NCBI GenBank assembly: GCA_965113315.1
Contig: OZ220364.1
DNA length: 64,000 nt
Origin: Podarcis vaucheri
Lineage: Eukaryota
Reading direction: 5' to 3' (one strand)
Shown: positions 6,800 through 56,100 of the stretch, piece after piece
Position numbering within the stretch: position 1 is the stretch's first letter
Layout of the letters: each line of letters begins with the position of its first letter
Notes under the pieces: generated by a model
Told to the model about the DNA's origin: nothing
The model's input: only the letters and a program-made list of their open reading frames with translations
Database searches by the model: none
Made by a program: the position numbers and the translations under genes

Positions 6800-7111
6800 G
6801 GTAAAGGAACCCCTGACTCTGGGGTTGCGACGCTCATCTTGCTTTATTGGCCAAGGGAGCCGGCGTACAACTTCCAGGTCATGTGGCCAGCATGACTATG
6901 CTGCTTCTGGCGAACCAGAGCAGCGTTTACCTTCCTGCCAGAGCAGTACCTATTTATCTACTTGCACTTTGACGTGCTTTCGAACTGCTGGGTTGGCAGG
7001 AGCAGGGACCAAGCAACAGGAGCTCACCCCGTCGCGGGGATTCGAACCGCCGACCTTCTGATCGGCAGGTCCTAGGCTCTGTGGTTTAACCCACAGCACC
7101 ACCCACGTCCC
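6800..7111 (-). mobile_element. Sauria SINE (POM/Squam1-like) with internal deletions
   Basis: tRNA-like head with GGTTCGAATCC B box, ACCTTT tail, 15-bp TSD TCTACTCAAAAGTAA at 6785-6799 and 7113-7127. Confidence 0.9.
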
Positions 7112-11311: not shown

Positions 11312-12764
11312 CTGAAAACAGAGAAAGACACAGAGATGCTCAAAGGTAAACCACACTCTTACCTGGGCTCAGAGAGGGGGATTTGTCTCAGGCTACTTTC
11401 ATATTCTGTTATGAAACCCAATGCTATGAAAATCTAACAAATCAATCCTTATTATTTCTGTTTTAATGTATGATTATGTCTGTTTTAATGTATGATTATC
11501 TATATACTGCAATCATCACTCAGTGGACGGAATGCTAGATGTACGTATGAAAAAGCAGGGCTTGAAGCTCACTGCACCAAGAAAATCTATGGATGCACAT
11601 AGCATATAAAGCGCACACACATTTATTTTGCATACTTTATTTTGTTTTGAATATATAGACTTCTGTAGACTTCAGAATATATATTTCAGATGATAGACAA
11701 CCTTTCCACAACCCATTTCTTTGGACCAGAATTCCAGATGCTTTGGACGACAACTTGTATAAGCCCTAGGCAGAGCAGCCATGCAGGCTGAGGCTGACAG
11801 GTACTGTGGTCCAAAACATCTGGAAGGTGATGCTGGATAGCAGGGGGTATATTAAAAATAACAGTCAATTCTACGTTGGCTGTCTCCTCAAAGACAGAAG
11901 TGGCTATTATTTTTCAATCCATGGCCTTTGGTTAAGGCTTGTGGTTGCTTGTTCAAATACCAAAATCATGGGTTTATTCTAGATCCTCATAATTATATTC
12001 CACATGTGTGCAAGTGTGTGTCCATCCACTTTTCTCCTCCTGAGCTGCTTTGGTAGTGTGGTTGACAAGAGGTACCATGCAAAAGCTGAGAGGGAGGGAA
12101 AGGCATTAGGCTGTGTTTGGGAAACAAATATTTCACCTGGAAGAGACCCTCCTCATGTGCCTTCTTCCCCTAGGAAATGTACTGGGCAAGAGTACTGCTT
12201 TCAATTGCATGCCTCTGTGGCCTCAGAAATCATTTCTCCAGTCCCTATCTTCACACCCTCCTGCATGTCTAGCAATGAACACACCACACAGTAAGCCAAG
12301 GGGTGGAGACTAACATTCTTCTTCTTAATTAACTCTAATCACTACTTCTGGCCTTACATAATGAAATGCTGCAAAAGTACTCCATATCCAAAGCTGAGAC
12401 TGATCTACCATGTCTCTAGGTTTCCTCCTCACCAACCCACATTTAAGAATGCAGTGTGGGTTACTGCAAACATTAAAATGTTAAACTTATTTTTATTGGT
12501 TTTTAATTCAGTGCAGGATAAAAGCTGCAGAAGCTTCGGGACTGCTGGTGAATGGAATTGGGAGTCCTAAGTAGGAGCAAATCTACCTCTTTTGGAATTT
12601 GCCAGTTTTTATAGGCATATCCTGTATGATGACTTTTCACTTAATGCCCTTCTCATGTAAATCTCACAGCTTAATTGTCATTATTCAGTTCTTCTGCTTC
12701 TGCTCTTACAGACACACCAAACTAAGACACAGAGGTCACAGCAAATACTGAATAGATTGCATAC

Positions 12765-12904
12765 ATATGCAGAGATTTCTGGGCCTTCGCTGCTTCTTCC
12801 TTGGAACTGTATCGAACCACAGCATTCCCTTGAGTCAGGTTCAGATGGAATGTAATAAGAGGACCGTGCTGCAAGCATAGAGTACGCAGTGTAGAGCCAT
12901 CAAT
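12765..12904 (-). CDS. TNRC6C: TNRC6C exon (140 nt) [47 protein letters not shown]-like RRM core
   Basis: GW182 RRM sequence [38 protein letters not shown]; CCAATTAG| acceptor, TAT|GTATGC donor; phase 0-2. Confidence 0.93.
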
Positions 12905-13931
12905 CTAATTGGAAAAGGAGCACAAATGAGATTGATTTAGAGGCGTCATGAGCAACTGCATCACATTGGTTTTATCTAGCCTTTCTCCAAAACTTAACTG
13001 CACTCACTTACATTCTCTCTGGAGATCCAGTACAACAAGAGAACTCACACCCACTTCTTTCTCTTTCTGCCTGCTCCCCGATATCAGCATAGCTACACTC
13101 AAGCTGTTTCTGTAAAGCCTCTGTGCCAAGTATTTTGAGGTCATGTGCATTAAGTCTGAAAGCTTTAATTGGTAGGATTGCTTAATTACCCCATTAACCC
13201 AAAGAGAAATAAGACTTTAATCAGACTTGTCTTAACGTAAAGCATTTGATCTGGTTGCTAATGCTATGCATTTTCTGAGTCAGGGAACTTGTTTAAGATT
13301 ATTTCCCAGAGTGAATTATTTCCCGGAGTGGTCGATGTGGTGCCGCCCTTCTGACACCAGCACTGCTGCCACTTACCAGGATGGGGGGGGGCAGTGGCCA
13401 GGTCTGGGCTGCACAGGCACACCAGTGGGAACATTGGAATGGCTCCACTGATGCACCTGCACAGCTCTGTCCTACTCTGCACTGGCCAGGTAAGGAGCAG
13501 TGATGCTGGTGTTGGGAGGGTGACACGGCCCATCCACATCTAAAGATGGCAAAGATTTTTTTCCAGTTCGGGCAGACTCACTATACTAAGACTACAGTTT
13601 CTCCTGCAACTGAAGAGGAAAGTTGTGTATCTCCTGCATGGGCAGGTGGCTGAGCTGAACCCCATTTCTGGTGGCCATGCATTTCCATATGGGACCGAGC
13701 GGCGACTTTCTTCAGTAATTACATGGAAAAGTGGATGTGTGAGTTTCTCATACAGAGTCACAGAGTTGTAGAGTTTGAAGGGATCCCAAAGATCATCCCC
13801 TGCAATACAGGAATCTCAACACACAGTTCCCCATCCAATCTGAAACCATACCAGACCTTGTTTAAGTTTGCAAATGTTTTATAGCTGCACCACTAGGAGG
13901 TCAGATAGCTGCTCTTACTGCTTCCATAGAC

Positions 13932-14442
13932 CAGTGTTTCCCAACCGGTGTTCCGCGGCACACTAGTGTGCCGTGAGACACCAGCTGGTGTGCCGTGGGA
14001 GGGAGGCGGGCGGTGAGAGGCGGCGGCCGCGAGGATCCGCGTCGAGCCGGGGGCGGCTCCGCGGTGGTGGTGTCGAGCGGCGGGGCAGCGCGCGCAAAAG
14101 GGAGGAGTGCGAGACAGCGGAGGAGGAGGAGGCCGGCATGTCCGGGCAGCAGCAGCAACAGCAGCAGCAGCAACTCCCGGCGACGGCTCCTCCTCCGCCC
14201 GCTATCGCCGCCACCACCACAACAGCCGCCGCCGCCTCAGCTGCCGCCGTCCCTCAGTCCCTCGCTCTGCTGCCTCCTCCCACCCCGGCAAGGGGAAGGG
14301 AAAAAACATTCACTTTTGTGCGTCCCTCCCGGCGTGACGCTGCGCGCTGACGTCACGGGGCGGGGCTTTAATGGTGGTGTGCCGCGAGATTTTTTTCCGG
14401 TAAACAGGTGTGCCGTTGCCCAAAAACGTTTGGGAAACACTG
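13932..14442. mobile_element. Non-autonomous hAT element with GC/CpG-rich cargo
   Basis: TIRs CAGTGTTTCCCAA / TTGGGAAACACTG; perfect 8-bp TSD CCATAGAC at 13924-13931 and 14443-14450; subterminal GTGTGCCG repeats. Confidence 0.9.
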
Positions 14443-15268
14443 CCATAGACCACCTAAAGCCATCAGGGGAAATAGTACACTTTCTGTAACGTATACCAAT
14501 AGCCATGCTACTGAAAGACAACCTTGTATATTTCTGGGTATCAAATCATTTGATGTCCTCACTATTTTTAAGATCGCATTTCTGCATTACCTGATGGCCC
14601 TGTTTTACATTTGACAATGAAACCTGCAAAAGCAGGAGGAAGAACTCTGTATTTTCAAGGCAGCTTGTGTTCATTGCTCATACCTACTTCATGCGATATA
14701 CTTTGCAAGGATTCAACCAATAAATGAATAGGTTAGGATAGGGTGGGCAAAAGGATCTGAGTGATCTGCAGTAATTACTAAGGAATTCTGACTCCCTTTG
14801 GTTGAACCATAGCAACCACCTTTCCTTTCAGATTGGGCTGCTGAAATGAAGAAAATTTGGGAAGAAACTAGGATTGGATTTTGGTGAGAAAGCACTGTGT
14901 GCTACTATTGAAAACAAGTATCTGGGCTCAGATCCCACAAACTTGGAAGTTTGCTCACTTCTGGGTAAGGAGATTCTATTTTAAATTTAGCAAACTTTGC
15001 AGCACTATATAAAAACACTGGGCTCTCAAGAATGAGGATTTGCATTTGGTTCTAGGTGTGTTTCCAAAGGGTTAAATGAGCTAATCCTAAAACGTACAGC
15101 ACCCTGAGTGCTTAGGACAGGATGCACCAATGGCTATGCTAATGCAGTGTCATAAACACTGACAATTATACAGCACAAGGATTTAGAAGCGGGATACCAA
15201 ATTTTATCTCCCTGATATCTCAAATAGCCCATAGCTATTTTCTGAATTAATCAGGGAACTTTGCTTAC

Positions 15269-15339
15269 CTGGGGTGTGAGGTTACGGAGGACCAGCCAGC
15301 TACTTGTTCTTCCTGAGCTGTCAGTACTCCATGCTGAGC
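15269..15339 (-). CDS. TNRC6C: TNRC6C exon (71 nt) GSAWSTDSSGRTSSWLVLRNLTPQ, start of RRM
   Basis: GTATAG| acceptor, CAG|GTAAGC donor; phase 1-0; not in ORF track. Confidence 0.92.
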
Positions 15340-17998: not shown

Positions 17999-20900
17999 CT
18001 GCAACAGAGAAATGCAATTCATGTATTTGTTAGAATGTAGTATAGGGACACTGAGTGATCCCCAGGGTTCTTTTATCTTTACACCAGCATAATAAGCACT
18101 ATAGCAAACATTGATCATAACTGGCAGAGCTTCTCTTGCTAATATATCTGCATAATTAATCCACAGCCTTTAAACATTTGTTCCTCCTGGTTTGGACAAA
18201 AGTCCCATTAGCGAATGCTTCCAGAGTCCAAACTGTAAGATCTGAAATTAATCTGACTTCTGAATAAAACAAGTTACTTACAGGTTTTAAATCACTAAGC
18301 ACATAAAATTAGTCTTTTTTTCGTCTTCTTGAACTGGAGGAACTGTCATGTTTGTTTCTGGGTATGCTAGAGGTTATGGTGGACCAAGTCCCCTGCTAGT
18401 TCCAAAAGTGATCTGCTGACAAGCCCCATTGCCCCGTCACCATATTTCATGCCTTCTCCTCTTCCTCCTCCTCCTTCTCTATCCACAGGAGGAAGAGAAT
18501 TGCTGACATCTTAAGTTATTGCCCAGCAATTACCCTGGGTGTTCTCCAACTGTTTCTAGATAGCCTGAAAGCAGTAAGAGACCACATCAGGCTGTTTCTT
18601 GCTTAACAATATGTTAACTGTTTCCTCTCCTGTTATCTGTGGGGAAAGGATGATGGGAATGAAAGGTGCAAGAGACAGGCAGATCTTGCTCCTTCTGCAT
18701 CCTTTAGTCATAGTGTATTACTGAGTCTACACTATCATTGGCATTCTTGTACCTTGGCAGCTGTTACTTTGGCTCTCAGAGGGGAGAGAGTTGACCTCTC
18801 AACTGCCATCCCAGAAATGAGAGAAGCACCTTTCTCTCCTTCTTTCTGAGGAGGGAGCGAAAGAGAGAAGGGAGTTCCTCATCTTGTTATCTCCTACATT
18901 AATCTGAAATGTTTCCACAAAGACCCCTCATGGCACAACATTTATTCCTACAATCACACATCCCTTTCTGATTCCTTTTAATCATCATTACCAGAAATGA
19001 ATGGTATGTGTTCAACGAAAGGAAAGAAATGCACATTATTAAGCATCAATCATATAAATGATGTACTTAGAGGTCAGTAAGAAAAATGCAAGATAACTTC
19101 CCAGCCTTAAAATATTTTCACATGTATATAAAGAGAGGAAGCTGGTTCACACATGCAGTACTAAACACATTTACCACGGAGTATGCCCTGTGCTGTGAGA
19201 GTTTAACTTAAACACACAGCCTTGTCCCAATGTGAACCTCAAACTTGTGTGGCCTTCCTTAAAAAAAAAAAGAGAAAAAAGAACCAGGACCTAGTCCTTA
19301 TGTTGTGTACAAATTGTACAGCTGTGATGTGTGTGAATTCACCTGCAGTCAAGTTGGTTCTCCTTCTAGAAACAATTTTTTCAACAAGATGAACTCAAAG
19401 GATAAAAACGTTAAATGCTGCAAAAATGGTCTTACAAACCATATGAGTCTGATTTAAAAGTAATATTCAATGTTGAATCTTCATTTTTTAAAAAAGAAAA
19501 CATTTTCAAAACAGTTTTACCATTATGTCACATGGTCAGTGCACAATTCACCAGAGACTTACGTTGTTAAGCAGTATATAAATGGTTGAAGTAGATAAAT
19601 GATAAGTAAAAATAGTAGTAGGAGAAAAGCTACATGAAGGAGCAGTGCATAAAAATTAAAATTAAGGGTAAGTAAACTTGTTTTATTTCCTTTTAAAGAA
19701 TTGTTAATAGGTAATCTTTTAAAAATACACGCTTTACTGCTTAAACTAAAGAGCTGAAGATTTAAGATTGTAGCCACCGAGGCTGTCCTTTTAATACAGG
19801 ACTTCTGCCTGTGCAATGGGATTTCCTCTCCCTCTCTTGTCCCCATGCCTGTCATCTGCTCAGGAGGGTTGGGGGAACCCCCAGAACAGATTTGGGGACA
19901 GCGGCACATGGGAAGAAGATATTCCACTACACAGACAAAAGCCCTTGAGCTGAAAGAAGAACTTGGTTGGATGCAAGCCTTAATGGGTACATAAATGTAA
20001 GAAACAAAAAGCATGGCTACCTGAGCACAGGTCTGCATGAATGTAAATGACATTGGTGAGCTGTAGAAAAAGTTTCCACAAGCCACCAAGATCATTTACA
20101 TTCATGCAGACCTGTGCTCATGTAGCCGTTTTTGGTGTCTATTCTGTGTTGTTTGCCCCATATGGTTCCCAAAGCAAGCCCGTGGAGAGGGGAGATCTGA
20201 AATAGAGTATAAGATTCCAGCTGTACACCAGTTTCTCAGGACTTGAGGCAGTGTGGGCTTAGTAAAGAAAAACAGCTGAGCTTTCCCTATTACTTACAGA
20301 TTTCAGCTTAAACTGCCCATTAAGAAATTCACAGTTACTGGAATTATCATTTGGACTATCTAGGCCTGCATCCAGCTGTGGTGGTAGGTTACATATTGTT
20401 TACATCAAGGGGGCCAAAGTACTGTAAGAAGACCATGTAACTCAAAAACAGGAAAAATAAATGTTCAAAATATTTTTGAGGTTTTGGGCTACAGTAAAAA
20501 AACATCAGATCCATGGGCTGTCCAGTTGCTGGCTGAAAAGGAGTTCAGCATTCCTTTCCATTTTCAGCAGTGGGAAACCCAATACCCTCACAGTCTTCAG
20601 TCTGGAGACCAAAATAAAACAGTATCATGTCAACATATTAACATTTTGATCATGGCTCTCAAAAATTACCTATCTGCTAGATGTTAAGTGTCTTATTTTG
20701 GCCAATCAATTAAAATGCATAAATTTATAACTGCAACATTGCTGGCATTTTCATTCTAGTTAGGGTAGGCCTGGCAATATCTGCAGGTTGAAGCCCCACG
20801 TCTCTGGGAGAAAATTAGGTGGCAGTGGCAAGGGTAACTTGAGAAAGTTTGCATATACAAAGTCCTCAGCACTGCTCAGGAAAAAAGTAAGCAGCAAGCA

Positions 20901-22247: not shown

Positions 22248-25200
22248 CTGCAGAACCAGCAAAGAAGCAACTAAGAAAGATGGGCAGAATGGTGTCTACT
22301 GTAGCATATGCAATTCTAACACCGTCATGTGCAAACAGAAACCATGCAAGGTAAGATGCTAACCCAGCCTTGCCTTTGAGGTCTAGGAATGAAATGTTAT
22401 AGGAAGCATGATCCGATGCAGCAGAACTAAGTACCAAAAAAGGGTGGCACGGTGACAAGGGTAGTTGTGCCCATGCAGAAGGATACATTCTATCTCTCCT
22501 TAAACTGTTATTTCCAAGAAGGTGACATTCATTGCCACCGTATCCAGGATACATGAATCGTAGATGAAAAATGTTTATGAAAATGCAGCTATATCAGTTG
22601 TGGTGACCCATGTGTCAGAAAGTTAAAAGCATCGTTCTGTGCAAGGCAGGTCAGACAGATGTGCTCATCTCGGCCCCACTTGCCTTCGACAATCCCTGCA
22701 ACTGTCGCCAGCCAATCCCACCCCCTCCAGCTTTGTAGCATGGGATGTTCCCACAAGCCTCAGCAAAATAAGTCACATCACAGGCCAAGGCCAGAGCTGC
22801 AGGACCAAATGCCTCCACGGATCTGCCCTGGGAGCTGAGTGTCACGTCTAGTACTCTGCAGCCACTGTGCAACTGCCACATTCAGGCTATTGAAAACCAA
22901 TAGGGTGGTCAAGTTGCTAGAAGCCACCTGAAATTATAAATTCTCTTGTAATGCTTCTTAGACAGAGGCACACAAATTACTTTAGAAGTTATTTATATAG
23001 TCAGAAGGGCTAAACATGACTTACACACATGGCATCTTGTTGGTATAGGTAACTTATATATGAAGGAAGAATCTCAAGGGGGAAAGCCCAAATAATCGAA
23101 TCCAATCTAACATTAGCATTACTATACAAGTGGACAACAACTCTATTCTAATAAATTAAGGGACTATCCAAGTTTTCAGATGTGGTGGAGCAAACATCAG
23201 CCATTCATCTTAAAGGCTTAAGGGTCCCACGGTGAACTCATCTATGTTAGATTGTGTTGTGTGAATATATCCTCTGTTTGAGGTACCTTGCTATATTGTT
23301 GTGAAGACTAGATGTATATATGAATGGTTTTTAAATGAGAGAATCACTCTTCAGTGACTGGTTTGCTGCAATATGTCTTGCTCTTGCACCCAGCATTTTC
23401 AGTAATAACACAGGGCTGATCCATATGCTGTGCGGCTGCAGCACCCACATTAATAGGGCTCCCTGGTTTTTATTTCTCTGCCTGCTCAAACACTGAAAAA
23501 TATGCAGGCACTGTGATGGGACATCTGTGCATACCTCACATATTCAGCCCCTTCTCTCCAGGCCTTGCAAGTTACTTGTAGTCATAGCGTAAGTATCTTG
23601 TATTGGGCAGAGGACAGACTGGACTGGCATGCATGAGATGTACAGAGATGCTCCTTTCTGTCTAACATCCTATCACACCACCTGCATGCATGTCTGTGAG
23701 GCTTGGGGGCGGGCAGAGGGGAAGCAGATCTCTTCCGAGCCTAGTTGAGCTTTTTACCTACATTTGCTACTCCTACAAGAAGATAATGTCCAATGTATAT
23801 AAATTCAGAAAATGGAAAGTTGATGTTATTTTCTGAGTCTCGAAAAAAGCTGGTCGTTATCTTGTACAAGTATTTCATAACAAGATAACTATACATACTA
23901 AAACCAATTGTAACACAAAGTTGTGTGATAACTTCTGCTCCAGGATCAATGCTCCAGTGAAAAACCAACAGTATAAAACCCACAAAGAAACTGCATGGTG
24001 CTACATAATGTTTTGCGTATCCCACACTCATGTGGACTGCATCATCCCAGACTATAAGGAAGTCAGTTGAGCAGTCAGTGAGTGTTGCATGAAACCAGTG
24101 CTTTAGTTCCCATGAGCATATATATATACTTGAATGGCTCCCATGCTTCCAGGAAATCAGCAAATCAACCAGATTATATGTTTGCCATATATGGTGGTGA
24201 TCCTGCCTTAGCACATGGGGGGGAGTTGGATCTATGGAAAATTATGAAAGGAAAATATTACTAAAATTACTTTAAAAGTCTTGGAAGCAGAATGCTTACA
24301 TTGAGTCAATACATGTAAGAAGATTGTAAGTGGTATACACCTAAATTTTACTCAGAGTAGACCCATTTAACTTAGACCTAACTTAGTCATGTTCATTGAT
24401 TTCAGTGGGTCTGCCATGAGTAAACTTAGCTGAACACAACCCTATGGCTCAGCTCACATGAATGAACCTCACACGCTTGTGCATTCATTCATTCCCTCAT
24501 GTATTTTTATTTCTTCCCATACTTCCTAGTTCTCAGCAAAGCCATTTCAGGATGGTTTGCCTCCAAACCAGAACTAGAAACCAAGATCAAATGATGGTTT
24601 CTAGTTCTGTGTTTGCTAAGAACCAGGAAGTGTGGGAAAGAACTGAAACATCTGAGGAAAGGAAATAATAAGTCAGCCTGAGGCTCATTCATTTAATGAA
24701 AAAGCATGGTTTGGCATTACAGCTGAAGTAAGTCAAAGTTGCAGCAATGCAGATACTGTGGTAAAAATACACCAGTGAAAGAGTAAAAGCCTGAGAAGAG
24801 AGATCTTGCACTGAAGACACTGGGTAGGTTCAGAGTAACTAAAGCATAATTTAGCAATATGAGAACAAGCCCAATCATTCTGTGGGTTTGCATTCTATCC
24901 ACTTCTCTTCCAAAATGGCTGTGAGGAGGAATTACCATGTCCAAACCAGTGCATCTTAACTATGGTTAGTGACAATAAGCCAACTTTGAACCATAATTTA
25001 TGAAGCTGGCCTATTTTCACTAACCATAGTTAAGTCTAACCACAGTCTAGTTTTCAAATGATCTCCTTGTGCTTGCATCACAGGGGGAAGAGGCCCAAGG
25101 CCAAGGGGAATTGAGGCACATTTTAATAACATTTTGCTGTGGTTTAACATTATGTCCAAACACAGACAATCTATTTTGGTGTGAAGATTGCAGGTATGAT

Positions 25201-29639: not shown

Positions 29640-29725
29640 CTAGAATAAAGAAGGTGGGACGACAGCACAAGATTATTAAGGGCATGGCTAACATTTGGCT
29701 CCTTCTCTTATTGGTAGTCACTGAT

Positions 29726-30060
29726 CAGCGCCTAGGGCTTGCCGATCGAAAGGTCGGCGGTTCGAATCCCCGCGGCGGGGTGCGCTCCCGCTGCTCGGTC
29801 CCAGCGCCTGCCAACCTAGCAGTTCGAAAGCACCCCCGGGGGCAAGTAGATAAATAGGTACCGCTTACCAGCGGGAAGGTAAACGGCGTTCTGTGTGCGG
29901 CTCTGGCTCGCCAGAGCAGCGTTGTCACGCTGGCCACGTGACCCGGAAGTGTCTCCGGACAGCGCTGGCCCCCGGCCAATAGATGTGAGATGGGCGCACA
30001 AACCCCAGAGTCTGTCAAGACTGGCCCGTTCGGGCAGGGGTACCTTTACCTTTACCTTTA
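29726..30060 (+). mobile_element. Sauria SINE, 5'-truncated
   Basis: GGTTCGAATCCC B box, conserved core, (ACCTTT)3 tail; no clear TSD; about 85 nt from the acceptor at 29640. Confidence 0.9.
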
Positions 30061-31121
30061 TAATTAGCACTCACACAACACATCTGTAACAGTGGCCAGT
30101 TAAGTGAAAGATAGCAGGTTAAACTGGGGCTGAAAGGTAGCTAACACAGTTCAAAAGTTATCTATCAAAGATTCGTGAGATTAAAGCTGCTACTGGGTGT
30201 AAATCTCACTGAACACACAGTGGGACCTGTTTCGAACAAACCTGCATGGGACTGATTTGCTACTGATAAAACTGTCAAGTAAAGTTAAAACAAAAGGACT
30301 CTAATGAAAAATGTAAGATACACAACATGGTATTTTGCTGAGTGTCAGCAAAAGCACTTTGCTATATGGATCATTAAGATCCTTAAAAATCTTACCAATA
30401 TACTCACAAAATGTAAATGTTTTTAAAGAGCACAGTATTAGCTGTGAGTTTAGAAAATGGGAGTTTGAAACAAGAGCAGGGAGCTAAAACAGGTTTCTCT
30501 CAGTATTGGATTAAAATGTATAATGACACTAAGGGCAATACTGAATTTTCACTTCTGCTCTGCCTACAGTTGTAGTCTGCATTCAATTTACATTAATGTG
30601 ATGAATTCCAAACACAGTTGGTAGGTATTTTGCACTCTCTTTGGGGTGTGTTTTTTTGGAAACTGCTCACCTAAGTGAACCTCCGCCCCTGCCAACTTCT
30701 CTTAACATCTCATAAAGTTTAAGATTTAAGGATTCATGAGAAAAATATAACACATGTGTAATTTAATTTTCTAACTGTGCATTCTATGCTTACCTGTTTG
30801 GAGATTAAATCTGATTGAGTTCAGTGGGGCATACTTCCCAGTAAATGGATATAAGACTAGCCTAAGCCACTCAAAAGTCGAGATGCTTGATGTTCTGGAC
30901 TTTTCAAACTGATTTTCCCTTCTTGGTTTTTAGGCCATTAACATTTATTATGACCAATAATATGAGCAATGAAATCAGTATGAGCAGTAATATGTGTGTG
31001 GGGGTGTGGTGGGAATTACAAGAATAAGATATTTGCACATACAAATGTTCCATTGAGAAATTTATATTCTGTTAAGTACTTTGCAATGCCCACTGCTAAC
31101 CTGGGGTGGGGGGAGAGAATA

Positions 31122-32943: not shown

Positions 32944-33213
32944 TACAGATGGGTAGCCGTGTTGGTCTGCCATAGTCAAAATAAAAAAAGTTCCTTCCTG
33001 TAGCACCTTAAAGACCTTAATTCCTTCCGGTAGCACCTTAAAGACCTTAAAGACCAACTAAGTTAGTTCTTGGTATAAGCTTTCGTGTGCATGCACACTT
33101 CTTCAGATACACGGTGTGTATCTGAAGAATTGTGCATGCACACGAAAGCTTATACCAAGAACTAACTTAGTTGGTCTTTAAGGTGCTACAGGAAGGAATT
33201 TTTTTTTATTTTG
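32944..33213. mobile_element. Penelope-like (PLE) inverted terminal-repeat insertion forming a long hairpin
   Basis: Starts TACAGATGGGTAGCCGTGTTGGTCTG; inverted arms around loop GGT (33113-33115); 13-bp TSD ACATGAAACAAAT at 32931-32943 and 33214-33226. Confidence 0.85.
33073..33110 (-). ncRNA. Minimal type I hammerhead ribozyme motif (PLE-associated)
   Basis: Minus strand reads GUAU-CUGAAGA-A-GUGUGC-AU-GCACAC-GAAA-GC-UU-AUAC: core boxes, stem II, palindromic AGCU stem III, 4-bp stem I. A plus-strand copy at 33118-33155 has one stem II mismatch. Confidence 0.65.
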
Positions 33214-34071
33214 ACATGAAACAAATGCATGTTCCCAAAGCCCTCCTTGCAGGAAGTAACAGACCCAGAGACAGAAGTCAGCTCAGATCAAGAGTGCAAA
33301 CAATACATGGCCAATTAAAGCTATTTAAAACGTGATGAGGAAAAGGCATCATCAACTGAATGATTGTTCAAGAAAATGTAAACACGGAGATGCAAATAGA
33401 GTGTTGGTAGCATGTGAGAGAACTAATCACAAAGGCCCAGGGTAGACAAAACATTTAATCAGGGTTCATGCTAATTCTGCTCTCTTAATCCTGGTTTAGA
33501 ACTCAAGTTAACAGGAACACTGTGGTGCAGAGGTTGCCCACAAGGTGCTTGTTGAAGGTCTTAATAAATATCCCCTTTAAAAACCCCTCAGACTTTTTGC
33601 CTTTCTTGTTCAATTCTGTCTGCACGACTCCACCTCTCCTACACTGAGCATGCCCCCTTAAACATGCCCACATCTCACTGGGTGCCAAGTTGCTCTCTGT
33701 GAGCAAGTGTAGCGGTGGCTGATGTATGCACTTTCCCCCCTTTGATGGGGTGGCTACTGGGAGAGGGGAATGCCACACCATTCTGTCTCCTTTTCCTCTC
33801 TTTTTCCTTGGTAGCAAGGTATGTCATGCCCCCACTCCCGCAGTTATTTGGTATTATGCTACATCTCCACAGCAGCCATTTTGTGTTAGGGCCTGTCCTC
33901 CTGGCAGCCATTTTGTGACTGACATCCCTAGCACTTTCTCAAAATTCCAAGTGTGTCTACTTGCCCAAAAAAATTAGAGAACCTTTAGCTTGTCAAACTA
34001 AGCCCTGGAGCACACATACATTGAGATGATACCAGTGGAATTCATCTGTTGCCTACCTGAAACCCTCTATA

Positions 34072-34318
34072 CAGTCATACCTCATGTTATGTCTGCTTCA
34101 TGTTACGTTCTTTCAGGTTACGGCCCGCGGCAACCGCGGCAAAGGGTTGTTTCCGGGTTTCTCTGCTTGTGCATGCGCAGAAGTGCAAAATGACGTCATG
34201 CGCAGAAGCAGCGAATTGCAACCCGCGCATGCACAGATGCACCGCTGTGGGCTGCGCACTTTTCATGTTGCAAACGGGCCTCTGGAATGGATCCCGTTTG
34301 CAACCAGAGGTACCACTG
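34072..34318. mobile_element. Tc1/mariner-type MITE
   Basis: TA|CAGTCATACCTC...GAGGTACCACTG|TA. Confidence 0.8.
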
Positions 34319-35026
34319 TACTATGGTTCAAACCATACATTCACACCTGGTCTCTGGCTAGGGCTTAAGCTTATTTAAGGTATTTATACCACTGTTGTTA
34401 TGTCTGTACATACTTCTGTATGCTCACAAAACTGAAATAAAAAGAAGTTCTATATTTATAACATGGGGCAGTTTTCTCAAAACCTAAGATTAGTTGTTGC
34501 CATTGGGTACATTGAATTCTACACTGGTATCTTAATATCTGGAAGCCTGGGTCCTAGAAAAATTTGGTTTGCAATAACTTTGAAAGGTTTGCAATAAAAT
34601 ACATGCATATTAAGGGCATGACTAATTGCACAAATGAATGGAAATAATGCTCCATTGCATCTACTGGTGAAGAAGTATTGCAGAACATCAATTTTATTAG
34701 ATTAGCATACAATACAAAAACAACAACACAGGAATCTATCAGGAATATTGTAGAATTTTGAGTAATAGTAGTGGTACCAGAGGTTGTTTTTGAGGTTGCA
34801 GTCCTATACATGTGTTTCAAAAGTTAAGTTTAGAACAATCCAATGGTAATGAGCAAAGTATTTAGTCTTTATCATACTGGAAGTATCAAGCAACTTTTAA
34901 GATTCAGGTAGTTATATAAATTCATTTTCAGAACCAAGTCTAATCATCATTTCTGAAGTGAACATGCCCATTCATGTGGCTTTAAATGCAAGATTTTCTT
35001 TCTGGATTTATAGCTTTCTCACTGTG

Positions 35027-35174
35027 NNNNNNNNNNNNNNNNNNNNNNNNNNNNNNNNNNNNNNNNNNNNNNNNNNNNNNNNNNNNNNNNNNNNNNNNNN
35101 NNNNNNNNNNNNNNNNNNNNNNNNNNNNNNNNNNNNNNNNNNNNNNNNNNNNNNNNNNNNNNNNNNNNNNNNNN
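35027..35174. other. N run (148 nt) that probably hides a ~120-nt TNRC6C Q-rich-region exon
   Basis: The orthologous segment between FLSPQ and AYQRLQ is absent elsewhere in 32853-36086. The minus-strand flank reads TTCACCTCTTAC immediately before the Ns, like an acceptor missing only its AG. Confidence 0.8.
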
Positions 35175-36365: not shown

Positions 36366-36501
36366 CAGTGATGGCCAAACCTGGCCCTCCAGCTGTTTTG
36401 GGACTACAATTCCCATCATCCCTGACCACTGGTCCTGTTAGCAAGGGGTGATGGGAGTTGTAGTCCCAAAACACCTAGAGGACCAAGTTTGGCCACCACT
36501 G
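36366..36501. mobile_element. Palindromic hAT MITE
   Basis: CAGTGATGGCCAAAC...GTTTGGCCACCACTG; perfect 8-bp TSD GTTTAAAG at 36358-36365 and 36502-36509. Confidence 0.88.
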
Positions 36502-41000: not shown

Positions 41001-41245
41001 GCTTTCGTAGATTTTCACGGGTACAGGAATGCAGGTTTTGGTGTCTTCGGGTGTCTTCCCGTGTAAGAGTCGGGGTGTCTGGGCGACGTTTCGACGAGGT
41101 CTCACTCGTCATCTTCAGGCTGGTGCTTTCGGCTTCTTACAAGAAGCCGAAAGCACCAGCCTGAAGATGACGAGTGAGACCTCGTCGAAACGTCGCCCAG
41201 ACACCCCGACTCTTACACGGGAAGACACCCGAAGACACCAAAACC

Positions 41246-41250
<5 letters not shown>
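41001..41250. mobile_element. Penelope-like fold-back insertion in a (TA)n microsatellite
   Basis: Perfect inverted arms 41029-41138 and 41141-41250 with a 2-nt loop; (TA)n on both sides; PLE-type CTGAAGATG...CGAAACGTC motif. Confidence 0.8.
41159..41196 (+). ncRNA. Minimal hammerhead ribozyme motif (identical copy on minus strand at 41083-41120)
   Basis: GC-CUGAAGA-U-GACGAG-UGAGAC-CUCGUC-GAAA-C-GUC-GC: core boxes, 6-bp stem II, palindromic ACGU stem III, GUC triplet. Stem I has only 2 contiguous bp. Confidence 0.6.
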
Positions 41251-41562: not shown

Positions 41563-41698
41563 CAGGCATAGGCAGACTCGGCCCTCCAAATGTTTTTGAA
41601 CTACAACTCCCATCATCCCTAGCTAACAGGACCAGTGGTCAGGGATTATGGGAGTTGTAGTCCCAAAACATCTGGAGGGCCAAGTTTGCCTATGCCTG
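41563..41698. mobile_element. Palindromic hAT MITE
   Basis: CAGGCATAGGCA...TGCCTATGCCTG; TSD GATAAGAA / GACAAGAA. Decayed relatives near 11720-11835, 43715-43840, 44100-44236, 45735-45870 and 51935-52075. Confidence 0.85.
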
Positions 41699-41788: not shown

Positions 41789-44479
41789 CTTACTTTTGAA
41801 ACTGAACAGCAGGAGCCAAAAGAAAAGAAGGTAGTGTGGGAAAAGGGGACTGCAAATTTAATCTGCGTGAGAGAGAACAGTGGAAGAGAAAGTGAATGTA
41901 TGAGTATGGTGCATGCTTCTGTACGTGTGTGAATAGATGGCTGGGAATTTCCATGTGTGAAAAGAGAATGGATTTTTTGTTGGGGTGAGGGGGAGGAAAA
42001 CAGAGGTGTGTCTGCACACTTTGGGCTTTGGCCCTGCCCATTGCCCTCACATGGTCTCCAGCCACTTTTTCTTCCAATAAATGCAACTCTTCACTTATAA
42101 AAGGTTGTCCACCTCAATGCTAAGCTATTCTTTGGCATTACATCTGAACTGGCCTACATTTATGAATGTGCAGTGTATGTGCTGTGGAGCAATTAATATA
42201 GAAGTGAGAACAGGGGCTTCTACTGCTACGCTATGCCTGTCTGGAAGAACGTTAGTAAACAAAAGCATGTATTTCCCGCCCCCACTGGTTTAGTATCACA
42301 GACTGCAGCAGGGTGCTGAGCAAAGGTTCTGCCCCTTGTGGAGCCAGATTATTCTCTGATGCTTAAATATCCCCTTCCGCAGGCAAATATTCTACAAGTA
42401 AAAGCCTGAAGTCATGTGGAAAAAAATCTCAATTTTGCTGTGTACTTTGCAAATAATTATAGCTTCACGAGTGTATGCATGCTCTTTTGTTAACTTGCTA
42501 AAAGCAGTAATTTTACAGCTAATTTGCATCATCTTCCCACCCACTCACTCAGAAGACTATTAAGTGTCAGGGAATAGCCCATGTTCCTAAAAAGGGTGAA
42601 ATATTGTTCCATGCCAATCAAACATGAAATATCTGTGGAGTCCTAAATAAACTCCTGCTAATACAAGTTTTTCTGCCGGCTCCTTGTAGAGGCCCATGAA
42701 AAGTTTCTTTCTCATCAACCAATGTGATACTTAGTTTAGTGCTGGAAGGTCCTGAGGGAGGACACAGACATTTTCTAATCATATCCCCAAGGTCTTTCAG
42801 CTCAACATGTTTCACATTCTGCAAGAATATCCGTCATGCTCCACAAACTGCAGCTTACATGACAGTAACAGGTTCAAGGATTTCTTCTGTTCAGGTCATG
42901 AGCTGTTTGCTATCCTTTCTTGCCTCTTAAGCAGGAATACTTTTCAGTGTCCTATATGTTCCTTCTGCTCAGGATTGGTTTGCTCTAAAAACCAAGGTTC
43001 CTATTCACATACAAAATATTGTGGAATGCTTAAAAAGTCATTTGGTCTGAAGTTTGGCCTGAAGAAAGCTAGGATATAGCTGGAAGAAGAAGGGAAAGCA
43101 TTCCTCAGAAGGGGAAAGTGGCCTTAACACTTCAAAGGCCAAAGAAACAGAAATGAGAATGAAATGTTTTGTTGTGATCCATACTCCATAGTCTGATCCA
43201 CAACAGAACTTTCAAGTACTGTATTTAGGTGCAATCCACCCCCGCACCTTTATGTGCTAATGCCACATAATAATTATTTTTCCAAGTTATGCTCCTGGTT
43301 AACAAGAAAAACTTCCTGAAAGTGTCCTATACTAATGGAAAAGGAATTCTGAGCATTTTCAGACTCAAAGGAGCCCTTCTGTTCACCAGCGGGGCAAGTC
43401 TGGATGGAACACATGGTATTCATTTGTTGTGTTTGCAACCCTTAAAAACACAGAGAAGTGTGATACTGTACCTAGAACTGTAAACTGTAGAAAAGCTGGT
43501 CTTTTCATAAACAAATAAAGGCACTTGCTAAGCAATTAATAATTTTAGGAATAAAGTTGGGGATGCATATGATGATTACTTTATCTTAATGTCTCAATTA
43601 CAGACTCCAAAAGAAGTGTTCTTCCTGGATTCTTATTCTCTGGAGCATTACAAATTGCCATGGCCAGAGATGGGATTTTGGATGTGGTAGATGTGTCAGT
43701 GCAATGTTAGTGCATGTGGTGCCCTCCAGATGTTTTTATTCTACAGCTTGCATCATCCCTGAGCGTTGGCCATGCTGACTGGGGCTGATGTGCTTTGGAG
43801 CCCAACAACATCTGGATGGCAGCCCATCGGTTGCTCCTGTACTAGAGGGTCTAAGGACAAACCTGTAAGAGAAGCTCCATGTAGTGGCTGGGCCTTTTTT
43901 AGTTATTAAATGTATTTGGGAAAGTTTAAAATCTATTACTGGTGTCTCTCGATTACTTGGCAAAAGACAAGAGAAATAAATTATTTTTTTCATATTTCAC
44001 ATATCCACACTGCAAGAGGATGTCTCAGCTCAATATTTATTGTTTATATGGCACCACTGAGGTACAATACTGAGTATAAAAAGGATCTCTGCCTTTTGGC
44101 AAGAATGGGAAACCTGTGGCTCTCCAGATGTTATTGGACTCCAAATCCCATCAGCTACAGGCAGCAGGGCCAGTGGTCAGGAATCATGAGTTGTAGTCTC
44201 AACAAGGTCTGGAGGCCCATAGGTTCGCCAGCCCTGCTAGAAAAGAACAGCTGGAAGCAGCAAGTGGCGATATTGTGCTAATGCCAAATGTCTACACCTG
44301 CAGATGAAATAGAACAGCTCACTCTCCAGTAACTATGCTTTCTTTTACTAGTAAAGCTAAGAAGTAAAGGGAGCAGACTCATGAGGCAAAACAGTACATT
44401 TACCTGCCCCACCCATATTTCCAGGTTAATCTAACTTTTATTGTTTCTTCCCACTCTGCTTCCCGAGTGCTGCACCTAC

Positions 44480-45500: not shown

Positions 45501-46745
45501 CTGAGAAAATTAATTAAGAGGAAAAATGGAAAACTTTTAAACGAGAACACCCTACACCCAATTTAATTCAACAGGACTTACTTCTAGGTAACAGTGTATA
45601 GGATTGCAGTCTAAATTTCTTTATTTGTCATATTTATTGCAGGGAAAGAGAATGAAAATCCACATAAAGTCTTTCCATATAAATATTGCATGAATGTGAG
45701 ACGGCTTGGGTGCAATGTTAAACCATTGTATAGTGTTGGGTTAGGCAACATGGTGCTCTCCAGATGTTATTGGACTACAAGTCCCATTAACCCCAGCCAG
45801 TATGGCCAATGGCAGGGGATGATGGAGGTTGTAATCCAACAACATCTGGAGGGCACCACATTGCCTACCTCAGATATACTACTACATGCACGAGCTGTGG
45901 CATGTTTTGGGTTCACACCAGAGGGGGAACTATGTTTCTTCTTGTCAGAAAAGCAGTTTGGATGTAAAGAAAATATATTAGTCTATGGTTAAGCATGGCT
46001 GGGCATCACATCCACAAGTTGCAGCAAGTCTCCTCTTTTGTGCAAAAGTAGAAAAAGTAGGGAACGTCTGTTTTTGATTTTAAATTAACCAGTTCCCTGG
46101 TTAGTTTAGACTTGTTAGCTCAAATAAGCCAGGATCAAACAATGGTTTCTGATCCTGGCTTGTTCACTAACTAGAAATTTTGCCACCTAGAATTCCTTAA
46201 GTGTGGGTGCAAGGAGGAACTCAGGTTACTTTAAAGCTGGAAGTGGAGGCTTTCAGGTTTACACAAATCTTATACAATCAGCTGAGAAAGATTCCTACTT
46301 TCTACCTTATTTGTTGGACAGCAGAGAAATAGCTTATCACACTTGTTAGCAAGCAGACATGCATTATGACCTGTAAACCTATTGTGTCCCTTATTTGTCA
46401 GAACTCATTCTGACTATGTGGTCTTTGCATAAATGTTGAAATACTGCAAAAATCAGATCTGTTTGTGTCTGTAAAGAACACGTGATTGACATCTACAGCA
46501 GGGTGCAAAGGAATCTGTTAGGCAGGGCCATAGCATATCAACTGATTCTCTAGTCCATTCCAGCTTTCCAACACCATTTGAACAAGACAAGTGATGGTAA
46601 CTACAGGATAATAATCTTATTGTAGTGCTTTTTGAAAATGATGACTTTCATACTTTCATAAAACAATTTGATAAAGTATATTAAAAAAAGTGCACGAACC
46701 ATCTCATCTTACTGGTTTTTATAACCCAGCTGTGCTTAGTCTTAC

Positions 46746-50800: not shown

Positions 50801-51494
50801 ACAAAGAAAGAGGGACCAGCTTCCCTGGGTTCTCTTTAAATTCAATAATAATGATTAATCACTACCAATCTGTAATGTATAAGCCATTTTGTTAAATACA
50901 TTGTGTTTTGAGCCACACAATGTTATGTAAATTATTACGCACAACAAGGGAGTTCATGCCCTGGCAAATTACATGTAATTACATGAAAACAATAACATGT
51001 GTTAAGACACCCATAGTTTGTAAAGTTCTCAAGAGATCAAATCAAGTGCAAAAAATTGCAGTGTTGAATATGACGGCAGTTAGTTAGAAAAATCTTTAAA
51101 CAGTAACTTGGGTATTGCTGATGTTTGAATCCCTGAAACAATTCAAACTCCACTGGGGGTTTCAGAACGGTTATGTATATTTGCATTTCTTAAGTAACAC
51201 ACTCTCTTTCACACACTACCTTCAATCCAATGAAGCATATTACTAATGATATTTTATAGGCTCACAGGATCAGATAGCTGGGTCTCTTTAGAAGTACTGC
51301 ATTGGAGGGTGATAGTGGGAGATCTCCACTGGGGATGAATTTCAGCATGATATTTCTTCTAATTTTTTTAATACCCCAGTCATTTGTGTGTCATCCCTCA
51401 AAATAAACTGACTCACTACTGGTAGAAGGCATTCCTTGATGACCCAGACAAAGAACTGTTCCATAACATTAACCTGCTTTTCCCAACATTAAGG

Positions 51495-51858
51495 TAAAGG
51501 TAAAGGTACCCCTGCCTGTACGGGCCAGTCGTGTCCGACTCTAGGGTTGTGCGCCCATCTCACTTAAGAGGCCGGGGGCCCGCGCTGTCCGGAGACACTT
51601 CCGGGTCACGTAGCCAGCGTGACGAAGCTGCTCTGGCAAGCCGGCACCAGCGCAGCACACGGAAACGCCGTTTACCTTCCCGCTATAAAGCGGTACCTAT
51701 TTATCTACTTGCACTTTAGGGGTGCTTTCGAACTGCTAGGTGGGCAGGAGCTGGGACCGCAGACGGGAGCTCACCCTGCCGCGGGGATTCGAACCGCCGA
51801 CCATGCGATCGGCAAGCCCTAGGCGCTGAGGATTTACCCACAGCGCCACCCGCGTCCC
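51495..51858 (-). mobile_element. Full-length young Sauria SINE
   Basis: GGGACGCGGGTGGCGCTGTGG head, B box, ACCTTT tail; 15-bp TSD TTCCCAACATTAAGG at 51480-51494 and 51860-51874. Confidence 0.93.
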
Positions 51859-52795
51859 GTTCCCAACATTAAGGCAGACTTATTTTTAATAGGGCTACAG
51901 CTGTCTGGTTGATGATAGGGCAACATACTTTATTTCAGCAGAAGCCTACATGTTGCCTTCCAGGTGTTGCTGGACTACAACTCCCATCATCCCTGACACT
52001 GGCCATGCTGTTTGTGGCTGATGGGAATTCTGAGTCCAAAAACATATGGAAGGCCATATGTTAGCCACCACTGCTTTATTTCATTGTAGCTAGAAAGTCA
52101 ACAAGTAACTGATTTATTGGAATTCAACAGTCCCAATTTTAAGAATCCTGGAATTGTAGAGTTGGAAGGGACTCCTGAGGGTCATCTAGTCTCAACTAAA
52201 GCATCCATGACAGATGGGCATCCAACCTCTGCTTAAAAACCTCCAAGGAAGGAGTGCCCACTAGCTATGAATTCCCCTCATGACCTGGGAGAAGCAACAA
52301 TGTTTACACTTTAGATACCTATGACTAAAATAAAGGTATGTGGGTGCTTTTGGATCTAGATGTATAACTAAAGGTGGATAATATACTTCATAATTTTGTT
52401 TACATCCCACGGATACACTGTAATTGAATTGTAAGCAGATATAATAGAAGGGGAAAGCTCATCCAGCAAGGGGCAGCGAGAAGTAATTTGGCACTCACCT
52501 CTCACTTTGTTATGTCTGCACTACTGCTGAAAATAAGCCAGAGAAATGGCTTTCTTATCTTACAGTACCTCACCAGGACAACATCCTTACTAGAGGAACA
52601 CTTCAAAGCACAGAGGAAACAGAGGACAGACAAAGGGAATAAATCATCGGGTAGACAAAAACATCAGTAAATGAAGGGTTTTGTGCTGTCATCTTATTTG
52701 CTGGAACTGTTTATGTTGTCTGTCCAGCCCAGCTAGGATAGAAAGCCAAAGTGGCATTAATCCAGGTTTTTACTTTTCTATGCACATATAGCTCA

Positions 52796-53159
52796 GGGAC
52801 GCGGGTGGCGCTGTGGGTAAAACCTCAGTGCCTAGGACTTGCCGATCGTATGGTCGGCAGTTCGAATCCCCGCGGCGCGGTGAGCTCCCGTCTTTCGGCC
52901 CCAGCTCCTGCCCACCTAGCAGTTCGAAAGCACCCCTAAGTGCAAGTAGATAAATAGGTACCGCTTTATAGCGGGAAGGTAACGGCGTTTCCGTGCGCTG
53001 TGCTGGTGCTGGCTCGCCAGAGCAGCTTCGTCACACTGGCCACGTGACCCGGAAGTGTCTCCGGACAGCGCTGGCTCCCAGCCTCTTAAGTGACATGAGC
53101 ACACAACCCTAGAGTCGGACATGACTGGCCCGTACGGGCAGGGGTACCTTTACCTTTAC
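52796..53159 (+). mobile_element. Full-length young Sauria SINE
   Basis: Same head, core and tail; TSD GCACATATAG at 52782-52791 and 53160-53169. Confidence 0.93.
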
Positions 53160-56100
53160 GCACATATAGGCTTCATTTGTTACCATGCAGGGTGCAAACT
53201 TCCATTTCAAATGTGGCTATATAATGTCTCAATAAAGATTTATGATTCTATACATGCTTTAGGGGACAAAAGGATAACTTAGGTCTATATATTTTAAGTT
53301 AGTTTGCTCTGTTTTAATATCTTTTTACATTATCTAGAAAGAAGGCTGCTACTACGGAATAGTAGCCCCACACAATGAACTACGAAAGACCACAGAAATA
53401 TTTAATTCTGTCAATGAGAAATTTAAAATATCTTACATAAACAGCCTTTTTCTAGTGCAACTCTTGTAGCTTACTACATAAATAGATTCTATTAGTCACT
53501 GGGGGCATTTAGATGACTCAAAGTTATAGATTTTCATGTCTTATTAAGGTCACCACATTACATTACTAGAGTTTTAAGTTACATTCAAATTGTGTTGTGT
53601 TTTCATGCTAGTTTCCCCAAACGGGAAGTACTGCTGAACTCAGCTGCGCAATTCATTAGGAGCTGGCACTGAAATAATGTTGTGGAGGAGAGTTGTAATC
53701 TCTTGTCCTTCACCATGCAGATAATCTGCCATCTGAAGTGTGGCTTCCCTGTAAACTCCTGGTCACACAGAAGCCTGTCCATGTGATCATCTCTCCCTCT
53801 GGGAGAAGAGGCGTTTGTGTGGATGACCCTGCTCACATGGGTAGTTTTCTACATAGTGGAGGTGAGGGGCTTGTATTGGGACCAAATCAACAGCAAGAAT
53901 AGGGACTACTCCAAACACATATTGCAGATGAGCCTGAAAATATCAGCTTTCCTTTAAAAGAAAGCAAAAAGGTTTCTAGGCTATGTGGCTAGAAAGGCCT
54001 GTAAATATAACTGCACTAGGTAGTTGTGAGGAAAGATGATGGGGCAAGCTTTAGGCATCTTTTGGATTCAGTCAGAGAGAAAGGGAAAACTCATACCTTA
54101 GCCCTTCTTTGTAGCTACCATTTATCTCCCTGTTACATACTGCTTTCTAGCCACCCAAGCTGCCTGTCTCTTCTACCTTGCTCATGAAAAGACCCTTTTT
54201 TCTAAGCAGGAGACTGCTTATGCACCAGTAGAGCAAATCCACCCCTCCTGTCAATACATCCACACTGTACTGAGCTCCACACCAGCTCGCCCTGTCCCAC
54301 AAGATAAGTGGCAGTGACACACCTGCTGGGAAGCTAGCATTGCAGCTTTGCCCCACTGGGTGAGTCGCTACTGCTGGTATATTACTATACAACTTGTAAC
54401 AAATGCTGCTGTTATTGATCCAGAAAATCATTGATTTAGAATATCTGGATAGCCTTGTCCAAGTCCCTCATGCTTATGTAAACTCAGCAGTCTGCACACA
54501 GTAAATGTACAGGAGAGTCACTTTGTGGATGCAATTTAGGGTAGTGTGTAATAGACATAGCTACCATTTCATTCAGCCATATACCATCGTTTCATTTATG
54601 GTTGAAAACTGAAAATATCAAACAGTGTTTTCATGGATAAATTCAACTGCTGATCCCTAAATATATGGAACTGAGATTGCAGCTGTACCAGTTGCTGGCA
54701 CTTCTGTGACTCAGGCTACTCTCATCTCTGTATCAACTCTGCCTTCTATACTGGCTCATGGGAGAGGGCTGGCCGGTATTTGGGGCTACAGGATTGTGAC
54801 ATATCCCACATAGGAACACCCTGCACACAAGGGTCTGGACTGCTCAGTCCTCAGGGGCATTGGCGTGTGTGTTTGTTTGTGTGTGTGTGAGAGAGAATGC
54901 ATTTAGGGGGAATGAAAGTAGGAGGTTCTTAATGAAATCTACAAATCCCACCCCTCTGACTGTCCCCAAATTTAGCTCTATTATGACCCCCCTCCACACA
55001 ATGCATTTTACAGGGTGATTCCTTTAAAAGAGGCCCTGTGGATGCAGAGTACACATGTTCCACAGGGCCTCTTTAAAAGACTCACCCTGTAGAACAGCAG
55101 CGGATGTGGTTAGCACAAAGGGCAAGGGGACAGGATACTTCTGCCCCTGTAAGGCCCCACATCAGGGCAGACTGTCACAGCTGTTCCATCATGGTTCACA
55201 GCTGCTTGCCCACATGTGAAGCTTCCAGGGCACTTGGTAGGGGTTGAATCATGCCCACTTCGTAGAGATGTCCATATCCCACTAAAGGATTGAATATTCA
55301 TTTTTAATGCTGAAGTAACAGGTGCTTTAAAATCTTCCTACCCAAGCTTGATGATCTGTCACTACTTATGAGCTTGAGTACAGGTAGCTCATCTACCTTC
55401 ATGTGACTATAAATGTAGTAAAGTCAGGAAAACTCAGGATTCTAGAGATAGAACTGATTATACGAAACCCTACCAAATCTGGTCAAAGGGTTACAAAATT
55501 TCTAGGGGCATGAGATCCAAGTACATAAGACATTCAGACTGGATAAAATCTCCTCCAAAAATATTTTCTTAAACATTATCAAGTGAAATAGAGAAAATGG
55601 CACAAAGACATAAAAATTGGGGGGGGCAAGCATTAATGATTAGGAGCTGCATTCATCTGGTAGTGGTAAGTTAAAACTTGAGGACTGGCTAAAAGTACAA
55701 GGATTGTCAAAGGTTTTCTTCACTGCTGCAAAAAACTGGAAGTTTTTAAATACCAGGACAACACAAACTACAGCTAATTATTTTGTTCAGCAAAAAATAA
55801 AAAGTAAACACAGAGTTTTCTATTTCTTAAGACAAAAATCTCTTTGTATGAGATAATGAATAAAAATCACTGGTTCAACAACTAAGCAGCCTCTTGGGTA
55901 ACAGCCACAATTGCAGAAATGTGTCTTTGGCAGGAGACAGCCAGAGTAACAGAAACAGATGGATAGTGTCGGAGAATGCACATCAAAGAGGGACAAACAG
56001 CAACAGAGCAAAGAAAGTAAATTCAAAAACATGATGAAATTATATCTTACCATATAATATTTTTGTAAGAAAAAAGTCATGCTGCAGTTTGTGTGGCTGC

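Follow-up and report, generated by a model that had tools for sequence, protein, structure and literature searches.

A candidate captured gene 5' end inside a young hAT element in a TNRC6 intron of Podarcis vaucheri

We analyzed a 64,000-nt stretch of the Podarcis vaucheri genome (GenBank assembly GCA_965113315.1, contig OZ220364.1; hereafter, the window) and found that an intron of its TNRC6/GW182 gene carries a 511-nt element (13932-14442) with intact ends and no transposase, the interior of which resembles the 5' end of a gene. In the reading that we favor, and which the evidence as a whole makes somewhat probable, the element is a hAT transposon that took up a piece of a CpG-island first exon (5'UTR, ATG, and about 50 codons, on the plus strand), was moved by a Buster/Charlie transposase acting in trans, and is spliced out with the intron. 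That the 5' end of a gene was captured at all, when every orientation and route is considered together, is likely. The element is a candidate Pack-TIR, an assignment that is probable but unproven.

The element is flanked by an identical 8-mer, CCATAGAC, at 13924-13931 and 14443-14450, which constitutes its TSD, and its TIRs match at 13/13 nt before a mismatch at nt 14, with the arms reaching 21 nt at 86% identity (Table 1). The TIR 13-mer has two perfect matches across the window, and these are the two ends of the element. When the window was scanned blind for any 8-bp TSD combined with a 12-bp TIR, allowing one mismatch at most, two structures were detected, the element and a 136-nt hairpin at 36366-36501, compared with a mean of 0.02 per block shuffle (n = 100), and a perfect TSD and TIR structure was seen in none of the 100 shuffles. 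The TSD and TIR structure of the element is therefore far beyond chance. We detected no Pfam family over the element in any of the six long frames and no repeat of its ends or interior elsewhere in the window, and the 64 kb hold just one copy. The preliminary description of this DNA had reported a perfect 8-bp TSD and intact TIRs with no transposase between them, all of which these results bear out.

Table 1. Features of the element and of the host gene around it
Feature	Position	Strand	Basis or remark
Left TSD, 8 bp, TA at positions 4-5	13924-13931		identical 8-mer
Left TIR	13932-13944	+	13/13 match with right TIR
Left subterminal region, four GTGTGCCGYG-type repeats	13945-14000	+	putative transposase binding
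G-rich, CpG-rich segment, likely donor 5'UTR	14001-14137	+	non-periodic; likely identity
ATG and ~50 codons, likely start of donor CDS	14138-14290	+	periodicity; ORF to 14348-14350
Non-periodic tail: AT-rich spacer, CREs, GC box	14291-14366		donor intron/promoter or transposon-native
Right subterminal region, two GTGTGCCGYG-type repeats (14377, 14408)	14367-14429	+	inner boundary approximate
Right TIR	14430-14442	-	inverted match to left TIR
Right TSD	14443-14450		identical 8-mer
Host intron, 2364 nt, GT...AG, splits RRM region	12905-15268	-	TNRC6/GW182 exons on either side
Upstream host exon, ends ...LVLRNLTPQ	15269-15339	-	TNRC6/GW182 gene
Downstream host exon, RRM	12764-12904	-	GW182 structure 2wbr, E 3.8e-14; lower boundary approximate

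The short TIRs of hAT transposons start with YARNG (PMC3014272), and the TIR of the element, which opens with CAGTG, agrees with this rule. Its left 14-mer is the TIR listed for hAT2_NA of Manduca (PMC3845634), and its right 14-mer is one base off the TIR of hAT-HT3_AC, a Charlie-related family of Anolis (PMC3014272). The target-site consensus of Buster elements is nnnTAnnn (PMC3517528), and hAT2_NA elements have a preference for targets with TA at positions 4-5 (PMC3845634); TA is found at positions 4-5 of the element's sole TSD, an agreement expected by chance about once in 16. Because of the TIR matches and the nnnTAnnn-type TSD, we conclude that the element is probably a non-autonomous hAT of the Buster/Charlie family. 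No autonomous partner was found within the 64-kb window. Further, such hAT elements typically bear short subterminal repeats (PMC4298943), and at the left end of the element, GTGTGCCGYG-type repeats occur at 13948 (+), 13954 (-), 13966 (+), and 13988 (+) and include a palindrome. With up to one mismatch allowed, the 10-nt subterminal motif has 10 matches in the window (1.84 expected), 6 of which, including all four perfect ones, lie within the outer 66 nt of the element's two ends. These repeats are candidate transposase-binding sites.

The host gene lies on the minus strand. It was recognized by the RRM exon that matches GW182 structure 2wbr and by a Pfam scan of seven host segments, four of which gave matches to Ago_hook and TNRC6-PABC-binding; the paralogue is tentatively named TNRC6C after the human proteins. 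Within the intron, the element lies at a distance of 826 nt from the splice donor and ~1027 nt from the acceptor, and its gene-like plus-strand reading runs antisense to TNRC6. We found no support for exonization into TNRC6, as no strong splice sites were detected in the element and the donor-like site at 13918 agrees with the consensus at only 5/9 positions, with many better sites in the intron. On the minus strand, 13918-13927 consists of an ATG in the left TSD copy followed by this weak donor-like site, whose phase fits the next TNRC6 exon; the combination is host-derived and probably incidental. It is most likely that the element is spliced out with the TNRC6 intron and is neutral. We also note two runs of N (assembly gaps) in the window, at 35027-35174 and 59066-59205, the latter of which breaks a large TNRC6 coding exon (open frame 57191-59926, minus).

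The interior of the element (14001-14366, 366 nt) surpasses every other stretch of the window in GC and CpG, with a GC content of 0.73 and 46 CpG (o/e 0.95); the best segment of equal length elsewhere contains 34 CpG at a GC content of 0.62. In the remainder of the intron, GC is 0.46 and 0.39 and CpG o/e is 0.20 and 0.16. The thresholds for a CpG island are 500 bp, 55% GC, and an o/e of 0.65, and the whole 511-nt element, at GC 0.675 and o/e 0.96, lies above them in sequence. The preliminary description had placed a GC- and CpG-rich interior of about 350 nt in AT-rich surroundings; the richness is confirmed, the length is better given as about 366-379 nt, and the surroundings are only moderately AT-rich (flanks of GC 0.44 and 0.40 over 2 kb). 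The ends of the element carry 10 CpG in 145 nt and retain CpG in 6/6 subterminal repeats, and they look no older than the interior. The view that this is a young non-autonomous hAT is supported by this retention, by the perfect TSD and TIRs, and by the Buster/Charlie type of both. Elsewhere in the window, CpG o/e is 0.88-0.94 in three young SINE copies, 1.12 and 0.94 in two Tc1/mariner-like MITEs, and 1.06 in a 222-nt palindrome, all of which retain CpG as well as the interior does. Because young SINEs and MITEs keep CpG too, retention is no proof of island origin; it indicates a young copy and not descent from a CpG island. The preliminary argument from undecayed CpGs thus holds for youth but not for origin, given an o/e of 0.88-1.12 in other young repeats. 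Compared with nine other repeats, the interior differs in GC content (0.73 versus 0.63 or less) and in triplet runs (84 nt versus 0).

On the plus strand, an ORF opens at an ATG at 14138, which has G at -3, and ends after 70 amino acids at a TGA (14348-14350). From the ATG to ~14290, the strand consists of Q/P/A/T-rich codons with a 3-base periodicity. For 14174-14290, the periodicity (chi2 31.1) was reached by 0/1000 shuffles at k = 1, 2, and 3, by 12/1000 at k = 4, and by 9/1000 at k = 5, and of the 39 codons that this segment has in the ATG frame, 32 carry C at position 2 and none carries G there. We detected no periodicity in 14001-14137 (chi2 4.9, matched by 580-861 of 1000 shuffles) or in 14291-14366 (chi2 2.0), and in a sliding window the signal climbed near the ATG and vanished after ~14285; four segments were tested, with the boundary at 14290 set by eye. 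When the stretch from the ATG to 14290 was taken as a whole, CAG run included, the periodicity was not significant against shuffles at k = 4 (178/1000) and k = 5 (380/1000), and synonymous interruptions showed no excess (148-970 of 1000 shuffles). We note that trinucleotide slippage by itself can produce periodicity.

No good 5' splice donor was found on the plus strand between the ATG and 14366, which implies that no more than a portion of an exon was captured. The order of leader, ATG, and low-complexity N terminus resembles part of a first exon and favors the plus-strand reading over a minus-strand 5'UTR. The tail that follows contains a half-CRE at 14335, a full CRE at 14348-14355, and an adjoining GC box at 14358; a CRE and a GC box no more than 15 nt apart were seen in 2/5000 shuffles, this pairing having been picked after inspection. 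Both the plus-strand ORF and the minus-strand text quoted in the preliminary description are present in the sequence, the former as given and running to the full 70 amino acids, and its proposal of a captured first exon gains from the codon-like plus-strand periodicity that begins at about the ATG, although no donor or sibling was found. Two further ideas were rejected. A fold-back origin of the interior was set aside because 79, 139, and 133 of 500 shuffles equaled the similarity between its arms. The predicted fold is strong for the element (z -6.85; interior, z -2.4 to -4.1), and the predicted hairpin is explained by complementary triplet runs and not by an inverted duplication. A signal peptide in the minus-strand poly-Leu frame was dismissed in view of an upstream stop, the lack of an ATG, a non-periodic mature part, and 0 matches.

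We searched for a donor gene within the window, where none was found across the 13.9 kb to the left and 49.5 kb to the right of the element, and in protein collections. The plus-strand ATG frame gave 0 matches among 8000 scored candidates of 204-2000 amino acids and 0 among 594 scored proteins of 63-203 amino acids, all of these being cluster representatives no longer than 2000 amino acids. Because simulated N termini at ~70% identity or more were recovered at E of 1e-3 or less in 20/20 trials, the blank search is modest evidence against a coding donor that is well annotated. The minus-strand poly-Leu frame had 0 matches among 1.84 billion representatives, and the minus-strand frame with an ATG at 14139 was blank against proteins of 46-149 amino acids. 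A PDB search with 6/6 frames yielded compositional matches only (best E 0.041), and the ESM Atlas gave no usable match for two frames. Exact protein look-ups returned 0/9, with only two of the queries being proper ATG-to-stop ORFs, and a further look-up returned 0/5 for the plus-strand ORF and four host-exon control ORFs; since the controls were likewise absent, these negatives carry little weight. Nothing in the window reached the Rfam gathering score, and two sub-threshold chance matches fell at the element. Among prokaryotic assemblies, siblings present as contaminants were found at 0 loci, with 5 single chance matches of up to 14 nt similarity, and a plasmid search returned 15 records with low-complexity matches, covering 17% or less among the best 10 of the 15.

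Under the favored reading, a small Buster-type element undergoing repair or replication would have made a template switch onto the GC-rich 5' end of a distant gene, so that its interior was replaced while ~70 nt of each end and all subterminal repeats stayed. The composite element would then have been cut and pasted into a TA-centered target in the TNRC6 intron, with a transposase of the Buster/Charlie type supplied in trans. The copy would be too young for CpG decay and would later become methylated and erode like other intronic repeats. Multicopy Pack-TIRs favor GC-rich, distant donors (PMC8277862), and we prefer this route here because there is no nearby parent, the filler is GC-rich, and the ends look as young as the interior. 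By analogy with AnBuster, which showed very limited transposition with ends of 58-64 bp (PMC12637253), the ~70-nt ends of the element may be marginal for transposition, or the transposon-native share of the interior may be larger than supposed; because 58-64 bp barely sufficed for AnBuster, the CRE/GC-box tail may be such a part. A far-reaching extension, to which we would attach hardly any probability, is that an active lacertid family of Buster type spreads ready-made CpG-island promoters and first exons (CRE, GC box, 5'UTR, start codon) and that an unmethylated copy fires within TNRC6, giving either antisense RNA or a short sense transcript of the last exons, which would code for just the C-terminal part of the silencing protein, and so tunes microRNA repression in one lizard lineage.

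Three other accounts have to be weighed against this reading. It is possible, though doubtful, that the interior is the ordinary consensus of a non-autonomous hAT, without a genic donor, and derives from the promoter and leader of an autonomous element or from another repeat, with triplets grown by slippage. Every donor search was blank, as this account would have it; other repeats of the window are CpG-rich inside, one of them with a CRE; the CRE and GC box just inside the right end could mark the promoter site of a transposase; and Anolis has eight orphan hAT families that resemble autonomous elements only in their TIRs (PMC3014272). However, the periodicity starts near an ATG that carries G at -3, it stops ~50 codons on, the combination of GC 0.73 and 84 nt of triplet runs is unlike the nine other repeats measured, and no transposase remnant was detected by Pfam in six frames. 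Further, the protein-search negatives on which this account leans are weak, with four host-exon controls missing from the exact look-up.

The two remaining accounts accept a capture and alter its orientation or its route. It is unlikely that the captured gene 5' end should be read from the minus strand; here a GC box/CRE promoter (14366-14330) would precede a TSS and a long 5'UTR, and the plus-strand ORF would be incidental, a variant being two captured pieces joined near 14290. This would make sense of the promoter-like motifs upstream of a G-rich leader on that strand and of the abrupt change in composition and periodicity near 14290, and it would accord with the preference of bat Helitrons for promoters and 5'UTRs (PMC4224331). 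The periodic segment, on the other hand, best fits the plus-strand ATG frame, the matching minus-strand frame is broken by a stop near 14239 and lacks an ATG ahead of its poly-Leu run, another minus-strand frame reads as nine consecutive cysteines, and the minus-frame searches were blank. Capture in place, in which a resident small hAT was filled by gap repair and did not transpose later, seems very unlikely here, even though the majority of Pack-TIRs in animals are single copies that arose by gap filling (PMC8277862) and short ends may transpose poorly (PMC12637253). Of the Pack-TIRs surveyed, 56.9% lie within 15 kb of their parent (PMC8277862), whereas none is present in the window, which extends 13.9 kb to the left, and the ends, judged by their CpG, look no older than the interior.

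Among the published cases consulted, Pack-hAT-N8_XT of Xenopus tropicalis, with copies of 506-562 bp that contain ~290 bp of CAPSL 5'UTR (PMC8277862), appears to be the nearest and closely matching one. Like the element described here (511 bp with ~366 bp inside), it is small and non-autonomous, and the GC-rich sequence between its hAT ends resembles a gene 5' end. The frog element differs in having a demonstrated donor and three copies with distinct TSDs (PMC8277862), and the lizard interior apparently adds a start codon and coding-like sequence. In the same survey, hAT elements account for 208 of 370 Pack-TIRs, and the anole contributed 0, with just 77 annotated elements screened (PMC8277862). 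The hAT-HT3_AC, SPIN, and Charlie-related non-autonomous hATs of Anolis share with the element a squamate host and an 8-bp TSD with a central TA (the TSD here agrees with NYYTARRN at 5 of its 6 specified positions), and the TIR of hAT-HT3_AC is one base away, but no family in the Anolis hAT table has a TIR identical to that of the element (PMC3014272). The hobo_AC elements of Anolis take up genomic DNA; the captured DNA described in Anolis contains old TE fragments, and the text makes no mention of exons, CpG, or host genes (PMC3014272). Manduca sexta hAT2_NA has the identical left 14-nt TIR and an 8-bp TSD with TA at positions 4-5, yet it is known from insect hosts and the comparison extends to the TIR alone; moreover, MITEs typically have many copies of uniform length and sequence and are AT-rich inside (PMC3845634), whereas the interior of the element is 73% GC, and we do not class it as a MITE. 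Bat Helitrons show a similar bias toward gene 5' ends in the promoters, 5'UTRs, and first exons that they capture (PMC4224331). Unlike the element, Helitrons belong to another class, move by a rolling circle, and have neither TIRs nor an 8-bp TSD.

Gene capture by TIR elements is already established in frogs, alligators, mammals, and plants. In the plant kingdom, Pack-MULE and Pack-TYPE elements share the bias toward gene 5' ends, and Pack-hAT elements have reportedly been found there as well (10.1101/2021.06.18.448592). Confirmation of the donor would bring squamates into the range of hosts in which hAT elements capture gene fragments; the literature searched, with most subscription journals lying outside that search, listed no squamate capture for which the donor gene is named. 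The element would then be a very young case with readable breakpoints that tests gap filling against template switching plus transposition. The gain would be incremental, as the process is known and no effect on the host gene was seen; it would carry greater weight if the family were multicopy and spread working CpG-island promoters.

The window contains several other repeats. A second hAT at 36366-36501 is a 136-nt hairpin with a perfect 8-bp TSD (TA at positions 4-5) that is free of CpG and has ends resembling Anolis hAT-HT1, and decayed hairpins akin to it lie at ~41563-41698, 43714-43827, 44108-44238, 45742-45867, and 51951-52078. The MITE at 34070-34322 has a CpG-rich interior with a full CRE (34191) and NRF1-like motifs, so that a promoter-like interior is not unique to the element; its CRE and that of the element are the only full CREs in the window. 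A near-perfect 222-nt palindrome at 41029-41250, with arms 99% identical and followed directly by (AT)19, is probably a young fold-back element, and unclassified imperfect palindromes with arms of 80-87% identity were seen at 20000-20140, 24955-25034, 33019-33200, and 55006-55094. SINEs of the Squam1/Sauria type, which point to a squamate and probably a lacertid host, occur at 6815-7111, 29725-30061, 51488-51858, and 52796-53159, and three of these four copies are young (85-93% mutual identity, CpG o/e ~0.9). With a length of ~360 nt and (ACCTTT)n tails, they fit the lacertid Squam1/Sauria SINE (PMC10058329).
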